Of a stretch of DNA of 64,000 bases, positions 24,395-58,043 are shown piece by piece. The DNA comes from Gemmatimonadaceae bacterium (GTDB lineage: Bacteria; Gemmatimonadota; Gemmatimonadetes; Gemmatimonadales; Gemmatimonadaceae), in NCBI GenBank assembly GCA_045803545.1, contig JBJMOW010000005.1:832001-896000 (forward strand). The letters run 5' to 3'. The notes under the pieces were generated by a model. It was not told the origin of the DNA, did not search any database, and saw only the letters and a list, made by a program, of their open reading frames with translations. A program made the position numbers and the translations under genes. Positions within the stretch are counted from its first letter, which is position 1, and each line of letters opens with the position of its first letter.

Positions 24395-24490
24395 GGGACG
24401 CGAGGGGCGGGCAGGCGGGAGGCGCAGGGTCGGAAAAAGGTTCCTTTTTTCGCATTCCCCGCCTCTCCCCTCTCGCCTCCCGCCTCCTCT
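24395..24490. repeat. G-rich/C-rich palindromic heptamer-type repeat with central hairpin; possible terminator
   Basis: GGCGGGAGGCG arm, CGGAAAAAGG-TT-CCTTTTTTCG core, CGCCTCCCGCC arm. Confidence 0.65.
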
Positions 24491-42438: not shown

Positions 42439-43290
42439 TTAGTAGATGTAGACCGGCGTGCCGACCGCGACCATCGGGTAGAGGCGCTCGATGTCTGCAT
42501 TGCGCATACGGACGCAGCCGTGGCTGACCGACTGTCCGATCGTTTCCGGATGGTCGGTGCCATGGATCCCGTACCCGTCTCCAAGCTCAAGGCGGCGGGT
42601 GCCAAGGACTCCCATATATCTGCGCGCTGTGGTGCCGTAGGGCGGCACAACGATGTTTCCATTGACGACGATCTCCTTGCCTTCAACCCCTCCACCTAAA
42701 GACACGGCTTGGCCGCTGGAGTAACGCCTGACGACCTCTCCGTTCTGGGTTGTGATGACGCCGCCATCGCCCGTCGGCAGTGCCTCGCCGGGATCCAGAT
42801 GAACAATACCAAGTCCTTTCTTGTGAGCCTGTTCGACGTAGTGCCAGTCGGGGGGAACCCAGGCCGGGTTCTCATCCTTTGCTTTCACCGTCAGCCGGCC
42901 GCGCGGGGTCTCGAATCTCCACTGCCCGTTCGATCCGCCAACGAGCTCTTTACCGCTACCCGTTGCCACCGGCGCCTCGAACAGAACCTCCTTGCCCTGC
43001 TTATACCAAAGGTGATGGTCCGCCATGCTGACCACGATGTACGGCTCGTTAGCCGCTTCCGCGGCGGTCTCGCTCATCAGCGACTTCAGGCTATCGGTCG
43101 TCATCCCGAGCTTGCCCTTGATCTCGTTGAGGACGCCGAGGTTGTCGTTGTAGACCATCCGGTTCACATCGCGCTCGTAACGAAGCTCGGCAGTTTTTGT
43201 CAGCAGCATTACGCTGAGAATCGCGGCGAGCACGAATCCGAAAACAAGCATCCAGACCGTTCGGCCGCCGTATGAAAAGATTTTGCTCAT
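42439..43290 (-). CDS. L,D-transpeptidase (YkuD family)
   Basis: PVATG, TPRG, YGIHGT...SHGCVRM catalytic motif. Confidence 0.92.
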   Translation of the reverse strand: MSKIFSYGGRTVWMLVFGFVLAAILSVMLLTKTAELRYERDVNRMVYNDNLGVLNEIKGKLGMTTDSLKSLMSETAAEAANEPYIVVSMADHHLWYKQGKEVLFEAPVATGSGKELVGGSNGQWRFETPRGRLTVKAKDENPAWVPPDWHYVEQAHKKGLGIVHLDPGEALPTGDGGVITTQNGEVVRRYSSGQAVSLGGGVEGKEIVVNGNIVVPPYGTTARRYMGVLGTRRLELGDGYGIHGTDHPETIGQSVSHGCVRMRNADIERLYPMVAVGTPVYIY

Positions 43291-43952
43291 TAGTAAAAGT
43301 ATACCTTCATACCAGCGCTAAGGTTCGGCATTATCGCCTTCATGTCCTCGCTGCTGATCCGCAGCGAACCAGGCGGGACCGGCGTCGAATCATTGGCGTT
43401 GCTCGCCGACAGGATTTGGGTGCCTCCATCGAGCACGATACGCGTGTCGCCCAGATCTGCAATCGTACGCTCACCCCGCGGCACCGCCTCCGGTGGAGCG
43501 CTGTCAGTCGCTGATGGTGTTCGCTCAGGGCCGAATTGCACTGGCATCTCGCGCAGCACGGCACCTTCGCGTGTGAGGTACATGCGCGAGCTGTCGACCG
43601 ACACGTTGAGATGGAGCCGCTTATCAAACTTGGCCTGACGTTTGGCGAGCTCGATGGCGATACGAAGCTTGTTCTGCTCCGATGCCACGATCGCGTCGGT
43701 GCGCTCGCGCTCAGCCGACGTCATGTGCTCGCGAAGCTGGGTGACGTCGTGGTTGTATTTCACGCGCTTCGCCATCAGCCAGCCATCGACCGCGATCATC
43801 GCGGCGAGGCCAAGACCGAGCACGAACACGAAGCCGGGATAGGCGCGACGAAAGTCTTTCCAGCTGCCGCGTCGGCGGTCACCTTCACTTGCACGGTCCG
43901 GCCGTCGTCTCGTCTCGGGGCCGGTCTCCTGTTTGGGTCTCAAGAAAGCCAT
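43290..43952 (-). CDS. YkuD-fold paralogue lacking catalytic His/Cys
   Basis: TM plus coiled coil, VSVDSSRMYL, VPRGERTI, GSLRI in place of GCVRM, terminal GMKVYFY. Confidence 0.7.
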   Translation of the reverse strand: MAFLRPKQETGPETRRRPDRASEGDRRRGSWKDFRRAYPGFVFVLGLGLAAMIAVDGWLMAKRVKYNHDVTQLREHMTSAERERTDAIVASEQNKLRIAIELAKRQAKFDKRLHLNVSVDSSRMYLTREGAVLREMPVQFGPERTPSATDSAPPEAVPRGERTIADLGDTRIVLDGGTQILSASNANDSTPVPPGSLRISSEDMKAIMPNLSAGMKVYFY

Positions 43953-44001: not shown

Positions 44002-45584
44002 ATGGCGAGCAGACAACAAGCGCGGCCAGTCGCGCTGATAGTACTCGATGGCTGGGGCTACCGCCCGCAAACTGAAGGAAACGCAATCGCACTCGCCAAC
44101 ACGCCCACCTGGGACGCGTTGTGGTCGCGCGGGTCGCGCACCTTGCTCGAAGCGTCCGGCCTCCGTGTCGGTCTGCCCGAAGGGCAAATGGGCAACAGCG
44201 AGGTCGGCCATCTCAATCTCGGCGCTGGTCGCGTGGTAATGCAGGATCTGGTTCGCATCTCCACTGCCATCACTGATGGCAGCTTTTACACCAACCCGGC
44301 GCTGGTGGGTGCATGCGACCAGGTCAAGAACAACGGCGGCACCCTTCATTTGATGGGTTTGATCGGTGCGGGCGGGGTGCATGCGATCGACACCCATCTA
44401 TTCGCGCTGATCGATCTTGCCAGGAAGCGGGGGGTGAAGCGCGTCGCCATCCACGCCATGCTCGATGGCCGTGACACGCTTCCGAAGTCCGCGCTCGGGT
44501 ACACTCAGGAGCTGCTGAAGTACATCAAGAAGGTCGGATCCCCGGCCAAGATCGCCAGCGTGTCGGGCCGGTATTACTCAATGGATCGCGACCGCCGCTG
44601 GGATCGTACCCAGTTGGCCTACCGAGCGATCGTACTCGGCGAAGGAACACCCGAGACCGATCCGCTCGAGGCAATTCGCCAGTCGTATTCCGCGGACAAG
44701 ACCGACGAGTTCATGCTGCCGGTGGTGATCGTCGAGAATGGGAAGCCGGTCGCCCCAATGCGCGACGGCGACGCCGTTATCTGCTTCAACTACAGATCGG
44801 ATCGCATGAGGCAGATTGTGGCCGCCCTGATCGATGCGGGAAGCGGGAAGCGGGAAGCGGGGCGAGCCATTTCGATGGGTTCGACGTTACGCGCGGTCCG
44901 AAAGTTTCTGTCACTACGCTCACGAATTACGACAAGACGTTTCCCGTTCCAGTCGCATTTCAGCCGACATCGATGGCGCGGATCCTGGCGGAGGTTCTCT
45001 CGTCGCAGGATCTCGGCATCCTGAAGACGGCGGAAACCGAGAAGTATCCGCACGTGACTTATTTCTTCAACGGCGGTGTCGAAGCGCCATTCCCGTGCGA
45101 GCAGCGGGTGCTTGTCCCAAGTCCCAAGGGGGTGGCGACTTACGATTTGGCGCCGGAAATGAGCGCGGCTGGTGTCACCGATGCGCTGGTGAAGGGTATT
45201 ACGACGAAGGAGTTCGACTTCATTCTTTGCAACTACGCCAACGCCGATATGGTGGGACACAGCGGATCGATCCCCGCGACGATAAAAGCCGTCGAGACAG
45301 TCGATCAATCGCTGGCGAGAGTACTCAAGGCGGCGGAGTCGGCGGGAATGCGACTGATCGTGACCGCTGATCATGGTAACGCGGAGATGTTGATCGACCC
45401 GGAGACGGGCGGGCCGCACACCGCGCACACCACCAATCCGGTGCCGTTTGTCGTAGTCGATTGGGAGCAGGAGACGCAACTACGCCCGGGCGGCGCGTTG
45501 TGTGATGTCGCGCCAACTATATTGTCGATGCTCGGTGTCGAGCAGCCGGCCGAGATGACCGGCGAAAATCTTGGAGTGGATTAA
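44002..45584 (+). pseudogene. gpmI: 2,3-bisphosphoglycerate-independent phosphoglycerate mutase, frameshifted at a heptamer repeat
   Basis: First frame: LDGWG, GNSEVGH, GRYYSMDRD, NYRSDR. After 44868, in the -1 frame: AETEKYPHVTYFFNGG, NADMVGH, TADHGNAE. Confidence 0.9.
44836..44862 (+). repeat. (GCGGGAA)3 GCGGGG tandem heptamer inside gpmI
   Basis: Direct reading of the sequence. Confidence 0.95.
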
Positions 45585-46311: not shown

Positions 46312-46827
46312 ATGGAACGCGATTACGAGGACATCAGGTCTACCGACGAACTCAGCGACAACGAGCTACGCGCGCTGGTGCGTGACACCTTCGACCAGCA
46401 ACTTGCATTTGATCCCGACGATGTTCAGATCGCGGTAAAGTCGGGAGTCGTTTATCTCGGTGGCAGAGTCGGGACCGAGGAAGAGTTCCGTATCATCGAG
46501 CGAGTCGTCACCGATCTCGTGGGCCTCAAGAGCCTGCGCAATGAAATGGTCGTCGACCCCATTCGCCGTGCCGAGAGTCCGGAGGCTATCGACGAGCATC
46601 TGGTCGACGAAGAGCTGCACGAGGGCCTTTTGCTCGGCGACAGACCGCGCAACGAGGAGCCGGAAGCCGAGCATATCCGTGAGGATCTCCGGTCTGAGCT
46701 GTTTGGGACGACCGATGTCCAGAACTCAATTGCCAACGCAATTCCGTGGAATCCGCCGGACGGCCCGACGCCCGAGGGCCTGAGCGGCGACGACGCGAGC
46801 CCGAACGTGATGAACGACGAGCACTAG
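46312..46827 (+). CDS. BON domain protein, highly acidic
   Basis: IAVKSGVVYLGGRV...GLKSLRNEM; GGAGG RBS. Confidence 0.85.
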   Translation: MERDYEDIRSTDELSDNELRALVRDTFDQQLAFDPDDVQIAVKSGVVYLGGRVGTEEEFRIIERVVTDLVGLKSLRNEMVVDPIRRAESPEAIDEHLVDEELHEGLLLGDRPRNEEPEAEHIREDLRSELFGTTDVQNSIANAIPWNPPDGPTPEGLSGDDASPNVMNDEH

Positions 46828-46988
46828 CGGGAAGCGGGAAGCGGGAAGCGGGAATCGGGAAGCGGCAGGGGGCATACGGGAGGAGGGAGGCGTTGGGCGG
46901 GGGATGCGAGATGGGGATGCGAAGCTAGATTCTAGACCGCGTCCCCATTTTTTATCTCGCTTCCCGCTTCCCGCTTCCCGCCTCCCGC
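46827..46988. repeat. Palindromic heptamer element: (GCGGGAA)4+ / central hairpin / (TTCCCGC)3+
   Basis: Left arm starts in BON stop codon; core ATGGGGATGCG / CGCGTCCCCAT; right arm ends immediately before queD ATG. Confidence 0.9.
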
Positions 46989-54264: not shown

Positions 54265-54333
54265 GCGGGAGGCGGGAAGCGGGAGGCGGGAGGCGGGGGT
54301 GGGAAGTGGGAAGCGGGAAGCGGGAAGCGGGAT
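54265..54333. repeat. About 10-unit GYGGGAR heptamer tandem array
   Basis: GCGGGAG GCGGGAA GCGGGAG GCGGGAG GCGGGG GTGGGAA GTGGGAA GCGGGAA GCGGGAA GCGGGAT. Confidence 0.9.
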
Positions 54334-58010: not shown

Positions 58011-58043
58011 GCGGAGGCGAGAGGCGGGAGGCGGGAGGCGCAG
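58011..58043. repeat. Short GCGGGAG heptamer array abutting the metallophosphoesterase start
   Basis: GCGGAG GCGAGAG GCGGGAG GCGGGAG GCGCAG. Confidence 0.7.

Follow-up and report, generated by a model that had tools for sequence, protein, structure and literature searches.

The closest described counterparts of the repeats considered here are the GGGNATC repeats of Xanthomonas and Nostoc, which, as presented in the main text of Rehm et al. (2015; PMC4692102), consist of 7-nt GGG units that are dispersed on both strands, occur most commonly as arrays of four units, form convergent pairs, show a strand bias and lie mostly between genes. The terms "in-frame" and "amino acid" are absent from that main text, and the supplements may list the frame of the intragenic repeats. 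In Geobacter metallireducens a GC-rich element of four heptamers occurs in 49 places within and between genes, as outlined in PMC2700814, and beyond this element no report of in-frame heptamers was found. Simple sequence repeats are hotspots for the insertions and deletions that cause phase variation (PMC12721329).

The family analysed here resembles each of these systems in part. It was found in G000, the Gemmatimonadaceae genome (3.70 Mb, 6 contigs, 93% complete, and presumably assembled from long reads in view of this contiguity) that holds the window, by which is meant the whole stretch of 64,000 nucleotides that was analysed; the sequencing runs in which the region is present are metagenomes from soil. 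Its units, GGGAAGC and GGGAGGC, are one base away from GGGAATC, and the family shares all the features of the GGGNATC repeats listed above, but position 6 is occupied by G and not by the conserved T, and neither GGGANTN nor GGGAATC describes it. Because the consensus fails at this position, the family is a look-alike of the GGGNATC repeats as the main text defines them, and not a member. The Geobacter element differs in its unit (GGGACCG / GGACCGG), in its phylum and in being a predicted regulatory element. The phase-variable repeats of Haemophilus and Neisseria are likewise coding tandem repeats with a unit length indivisible by three, in which slippage would shift the frame, but the G000 arrays are short (four units) and degenerate, their hosts are core enzymes of a bacterium from soil, and their coding sites are in frame in 18 of 19 cases with no recurring OFF allele found. 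No report of this repeat in the Gemmatimonadota was found in a literature search outside which most subscription papers fall.

The interrupted gpmI gene

The one coding site that is out of frame lies in gpmI, the gene for cofactor-independent phosphoglycerate mutase (iPGM; TIGR01307; PDB 1EJJ and 1O98). Its parts in the window are as follows.

44002..44835, plus strand: 5' half of gpmI, 278 codons beginning with ATG at 44002; matches TIGR01307 positions 2-269, E 1.8e-106
44836..44867, plus strand: heptamer tract of 32 nt, made of three GCGGGAA units, a partial fourth unit and a 5-nt tail
44838..44862, plus strand: four G-tracts within the heptamer tract, spaced G3-N4-G3-N4-G3-N4-G4, a G-quadruplex match at the level of pattern alone
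44868..45584, plus strand: 3' half of gpmI, 238 codons and a stop; matches TIGR01307 positions 272-503, E 3.7e-92
44868..45024, plus strand: shifted tail of the 5' frame, to the TGA at 45022-45024

Both halves match the iPGM family, with the catalytic Ser and the metal-binding motifs present and with all but a few positions of the 504-position profile covered (271 of the 278 residues of the 5' half were scanned). The tract, which reads GCGGGAA three times and then GCGGGG and CGAGC, lies between a GAT that ends at 44835 and closes the LID codons and the CAT at 44868 that opens HFDGFD, and in the assembly the motifs of the 3' half (AETEKY, NADMVGH, TADHGN and HTAHT) are out of frame with those of the 5' half (LDGWG, GNSEVGH and NYRSDR). 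The 5' frame runs on to its TGA as a product of 340 aa that contains none of the four 3' motifs. A single continuous reading frame, present in the closest database protein found (P0004) and in the relatives, is absent from the window assembly. The junction measures 98 nt here and 69 nt in most relatives, which amounts to a net gain of 29 nt rather than 32 because the tract also replaces one codon, and the tract is one unit (7 nt) shorter than the loop length in P0004. Neither half shows decay, and both are 99% identical to P0004. The first-pass annotation, which had described the tract, the break in frame and two otherwise intact halves, was accurate on these points, and also in stating that the unit is common to intergenic arrays of the window (46826-46865, 46958-46988 and 54265-54332).

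A split enzyme whose second part starts at ATG 44973 was considered and rejected, since the corresponding Met of relatives is simply part of the interior of the protein and no obvious ribosome-binding site accompanies it. Two genes at 42439-43952 on the minus strand are transcribed away from gpmI; the downstream gene of this pair has weak L,D-transpeptidase profile matches and the upstream gene has no NCBIfam match.

A phosphoglycerate mutase null would cut both glycolysis and gluconeogenesis, and gpmI is on these textbook grounds probably essential. Neither gpmA (TIGR01258), nor an archaeal-type mutase (PF10143), nor a second gpmI was found in the 93% complete genome, and the search for a backup that had been proposed along with the switch was thus negative; a backup mutase could lie in the missing part of the genome. 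The second PF01676 match proved to be phosphopentomutase, and eno and pgk are intact. Two PF00300 proteins are present, one of which has weak dPGM profile matches that score 38 bits against a cut-off of 316 and 40 bits against a cut-off of 261.

The heptamer family between and within genes

Exact arrays of at least three copies number 100 at period 7 and 44 at period 4 in G000, compared with 0 to 4 at periods 5, 6 and 8 to 12. When one mismatch per unit is allowed, the GGGAAGC/GGGAGGC family comprises 118 arrays, 59 on the plus and 59 on the minus strand, distributed over four of the six contigs; the commonest size is four units (42 of 118), and arrays of three and of five units number 22 each. 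Inverted pairs within 300 nt are convergent in 13 cases and have the opposite order in none. According to the gene calls made for this analysis, the G-rich strand is sense in 36 and antisense in 16 of the arrays that follow stop codons, while before start codons it is antisense in 23 and sense in 12. On a looser count with the same calls, 83 of the 118 arrays lie outside open reading frames and 35 (about 30%, gpmI included) lie inside them, as against the intragenic shares of 7-11% in Xanthomonas and about 32% in Nostoc given in PMC4692102. The unit is free of stop codons in all six frames and is read as a rotation of AGSGKRE/AGGGRRE or, from the other strand, of FPLPASR/LPPPASR.

In the window the three-unit pattern has 14 matches and in each of 100 shuffles it has 0, and an origin of the arrays by chance is excluded. 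The arrays of the window outside gpmI are the following, and those at 46826 and 46958 form a convergent pair.

24395..24487, no single strand: degenerate convergent pair of the heptamer family, between two plus-strand genes
46826..46865, plus strand: array with its G-rich strand on the sense strand, beginning at the stop codon of the open reading frame 46312-46827
46958..46988, minus strand: inverted array that extends to the start codon (46989) of a QueD-like open reading frame
54265..54332, plus strand: intergenic array of about 10 degenerate units
58013..58040, plus strand: GCGGGAG-type intergenic array, directly preceding a start codon on the minus strand

The family is unevenly spread among the relatives. 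Four of the five genus relatives tested are equally repeat-rich (128-253 matches) and one is poor (4 matches), and across the phylum an exact match occurs in 35 of 301 genomes and in none of the other 266, with more than 40 matches in four genomes only. A second type of heptamer (GTAACGG / GTAACGC) forms a cluster of often palindromic arrays at G000:C4:1501957-1521949, where it grades into GCGGGAA units within one array. A genome of the same bacterial family, G167, has 12 matches to the reversed pattern and 0 to the pattern itself, which hints at a different heptamer family.

Under strict criteria, 19 of the 118 arrays in G000 have coding sequence on both sides, and 18 of these are in frame, with gpmI the only one shifted; the hosts of the in-frame arrays include alaS, sucA, gltB, ftsK, pnp and rplD. 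If a random two thirds of array lengths disrupted the frame, the probability of at most one shifted array among 19 would be 3e-8, a figure that shows selection and is not a rate, because arrays in the same gene are non-independent and broken genes decay from view. Among 19 host reading frames that were scanned, a single profile match spans the array in 12 (gltB, sucA, alaS, a 2-oxoacid dehydrogenase E2, rplD, UgpC, a LytTR regulator, a Dpp5-like peptidase, an asparaginase, a DUF1800 protein, an aldehyde dehydrogenase and an F5/8 domain protein), and two further hosts, FtsK and an FG-GAP protein, carry domains to either side of the array.

Several of the host genes have features of their own. 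The FG-GAP / ASPIC-UnbV gene at G000:C4:1268785-1272312 contains three in-frame arrays, two of which face each other as a convergent inverted pair with about 250 nt of coding sequence between them. Ribosomal protein L4 (G000:C6:49077-49916, a "sunset domain" variant) has two in-frame arrays in a C-terminal extension, and the aldehyde dehydrogenase reading frame at G000:C2:93216-94118 encodes 300 aa that match the first half of the family profile only, with an in-frame array near the start.

In the relative G014, of which 1.44 Mb were surveyed, the 43 arrays include 8 that lie in frame within genes and none that breaks a gene, one apparent shift having turned out to be a stop codon followed by the start of the next gene. 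Among the 32 arrays of G014 whose flanks map to G000, 19 have an array at the same place. The sucA junction is 51 nt long in 11 of the 14 relatives measured and 72, 96 (G000), 99 and 117 nt long in repeat-bearing genomes; one of the relatives, G115, keeps the ancestral 51 nt and yet has three heptamer-like units. This series suggests that Ala-Gly-x-Gly codons can give rise to arrays on the spot, without the arrival of an element. The alaS junction is 99 nt in G000 and 96 nt in G014, and length changes are accordingly not always of 21 nt.

The gpmI junction in relatives, database proteins and short-read contigs

The gpmI gene is in frame across the junction in all 51 other genomes examined (58 loci, with 7 genomes represented twice), a set that includes two unpublished genomes, G050 and G051, on neither of which any claim rests. 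The site is occupied by a 33-nt array of the GCGGGAG type in G014, by a short remnant in G060 and by an unrelated in-frame insert in G001; only two of the 51 genomes therefore carry the array or a remnant of it, which gives weak power to any test for OFF alleles. The 224 distinct database proteins divide into 196 with a plain junction, 8 that lack the region, 3 that are frameshifted nearby and 17 with in-frame inserts. The three frameshifted proteins (P0143, P0154 and P0187) lack the heptamer peptide, and breaks near the junction therefore also arise without the repeat. The comparison with close relatives that the first-pass annotation had called for thus shows an insert that is absent in most of them, and variable in length and in frame in some. 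An NRHGDDD-like in-frame insert of 14-15 residues is present in the same loop of other relatives (locus L007 of G001, and P0027, P0039, P0050, P0080, P0101 and P0116).

The closest of the proteins found is P0004, in which 78 of 78 and 220 of 223 compared flanking residues (298 of 301) are identical to those of the window and the junction reads ...LIS-AGSGMREAGSGPS-HFDGFD, a loop of 13 residues that has the four-unit length. P0004 is a single partial sequence whose source is a different strain or a different species (IVRSLIS in place of IVAALID). Another close protein, P0034, is 97% identical and has no insert in the loop. In-frame loops among the close proteins add 2, 4, 8, 9, 10, 12, 15 or 17 residues, and three sister pairs, paired by eye and at the protein level only, are separated by 7 residues, the equivalent of three units (+8/+15, +10/+17 and +2/+9). 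When the shifted gpmI tail was used as a query, it was common to no protein among 113 matches nor to any of the 224 related proteins; the window's own gpmI products are absent from the protein collection. A scan for the junction pattern returned 50 loci in genome contigs, of which one is gpmI (L102), and 46 loci in metagenome contigs, of which none is.

An alignment-based structure model of the G014 enzyme (mean pLDDT 79) places the insert after helix 267-278, in coil, where pLDDT falls to 58 between blocks of 85 and 87. The model matches the iPGM structure 1O98 (E 7e-61), and the G014 ortholog matches 1EJJ (E 9.7e-157), in which the position of the repeat-derived loop corresponds to a 5-residue alignment gap.

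The locus was also compared with contigs, as distinct from raw reads, from four runs (X1-X4), none of which bridges the gpmI array. Record 18 of run X3 (408 nt, depth 3.2) has 0 differences from the window over 44458-44861 (404 nt) and then four unmatched letters, so that it departs from the window inside the fourth unit, at 44862. The final 31-mer of the record begins with T44835, the base that immediately precedes the array, and this is where a contig built with k=31 would be expected to end if four full units and GC followed; the "four units" are read from the length of the record and not from its four unmatched letters. In G000 the core formed by three units and GCGGG is followed by AAGC at 40 of 54 places and by G at gpmI only, and 0 of 40 four-unit cores are preceded by T. 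Record 18 speaks for a different allele at 44862 but does not prove how long that allele is, and its path may at depth 3 derive from another organism. Record 25 of run X4, from another study and from a 95% relative (23 differences in 444 nt), also ceases to match at 44861.

The quality of the assembly was assessed by a screen for single-base frameshifts, which left 6 further genes among 843 orthologs in G000, none of them at a heptamer, and 0 among 809 in G014. The screen had initially produced 17 calls in G000, of which 9 were aligned at the DNA level and 6 kept; the other 11 were set aside as upstream extensions of the called reading frames (3 on alignment and 8 because they fall within the first 45 codons). 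In G014, where the screen covered 120 stretches (1.44 Mb) of about 3.4 Mb, each of the 6 calls was situated at the likely start codon, ahead of it or within the first residues. The six G000 frameshifts, at C6:253666, C4:1284745, C4:1491242, C2:884680, C4:1216190 and C2:23909, are probably consensus errors of the assembly. At 6 in about 0.97 Mb this background rate is far too low to strike the 32-nt tract by chance, and an assembly error at gpmI therefore requires that an error specific to the repeat be assumed.

What the break in gpmI represents

The reading that is favoured, with a probability of roughly 65%, is that gpmI contains a tolerated four-unit in-frame loop of which one unit was lost in assembly. 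It is favoured because of the four-unit loop of P0004, the point at which record 18 ends, the 18 of 19 coding arrays that are in frame, the intact gpmI frame in 51 of 51 genomes, the lack of any other mutase in the search, the six assembly frameshifts and the position of the site in coil. The fact that the 18 other coding arrays of G000 were assembled in frame counts against it. Under this reading gpmI would be a working single-copy gene in which the surface loop after helix 267-278 holds a short heptamer array. Arrays would grow and shrink through slipped-strand mispairing, with only those totals that preserve the frame being retained by selection, often in steps of three units (21 nt, 7 residues). 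The working gpmI allele would then have four units and the tail (39 nt, 13 residues), of which the assembly consensus dropped one unit. The interpretation offered in the first-pass annotation is in this way divided: its fallback, that a four-unit array had entered a conserved enzyme as an in-frame loop and that one unit is missing from the assembly, gains support from P0004, from the relatives G014 and G060, from the short-read contig and from the 18 other arrays, while its headline, a reversible ON/OFF switch, is not supported.

A less probable account, though one that deserves to be taken seriously, is that the 32-nt allele is real and that a recent slip removed one unit, producing a harmful, short-lived or minority null that serves no purpose. 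The variation in loop length among close proteins, including the three pairs that are 7 residues apart, and the gap to the P0004 loop of exactly one unit are what this account would predict. A metagenome consensus, on the other hand, shows whichever allele predominates, and a null allele of the sole mutase that was found is unlikely to predominate; the X3 contig, otherwise nearly identical to the window, departs from it at 44862, and both halves of the gene are still 99% identical to P0004. The 32-nt tract is read from the assembly and is a candidate for an allele carried by living cells.

A bolder version, which is improbable on present evidence, holds that in repeat-rich Gemmatimonadaceae a process remakes G-rich coding stretches on the spot as GGGAAGC/GGGAGGC units and afterwards enlarges them, so that core loops would change in 7-residue steps, frameshifted alleles would arise at a measurable rate, and the gpmI break would be an example of these alleles, sampled from a natural population. 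It fits the data because of the sucA series and the patchy spread of the repeat through the phylum.

Adaptive phase variation, in which the array would be kept as a reversible switch on iPGM, is very improbable. An intragenic tandem repeat whose length is not a multiple of three and which varies between lineages has the expected form, and repeats of this kind are known hotspots of phase variation (PMC12721329). No second OFF allele caused by the repeat was found in 51 genomes or 224 proteins, the search with the shifted tail included, and ON and OFF alleles did not recur among strains, although the few genomes and proteins that carry the array make this a test of low power. With no backup found in the 93% complete genome, the gene does not look like the dispensable or backed-up target that a switch calls for, the same repeat is in frame in alaS, ftsK, sucA, gltB, pnp and rplD, and close relatives such as P0034 have no array at all. 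Rehm et al. thought phase variation unlikely for the look-alike repeats they describe in the main text of PMC4692102. A switch on the only phosphoglycerate mutase found would, if true, be striking.

Recoding of a real 32-nt allele, by a -1 slip on the terminal G4 run with the aid of an RNA G-quadruplex that would yield some full-length enzyme, is hardly credible. The tract has four G-tracts and ends in GCG GGG CGA, on which a Gly tRNA in the P site could move back by one base and pair again, and -1 frameshifting induced by G-quadruplexes appears as a title in the reference list of Rehm et al.; the G-quadruplex likeness in G000 is one of G-tract pattern. These features are outweighed by the G-GGG-CGA context occurring in frame 38 times in other genes, by the location of the G-tracts upstream of and within the slip site and not downstream of it, and by the conservation of the shifted arrangement in no relative. 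A variant that invokes a hungry codon was rejected, CGA not being rare (13% of Arg codons). It is equally hard to credit that gpmI is being lost while a divergent protein of the histidine phosphatase family substitutes for it, since, for all that there are two PF00300 proteins and one has weak dPGM matches, their scores are far below the dPGM cut-offs, TIGR01258 finds nothing and the gpmI halves are without decay.

If the four-unit loop with a unit lost in assembly is the correct reading, a frame break at an array in an assembled genome should be compared with the reads before the gene concerned is taken to be broken or phase-variable. Together with the graded series at sucA, the steps of 7 residues that separate sister proteins would offer a workable system in which to study how repeats arise inside genes. 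The dispersed four-unit heptamers known from Xanthomonas, Nostoc and Geobacter would then also occur in the Gemmatimonadaceae, where they would be translated as loops of core proteins.
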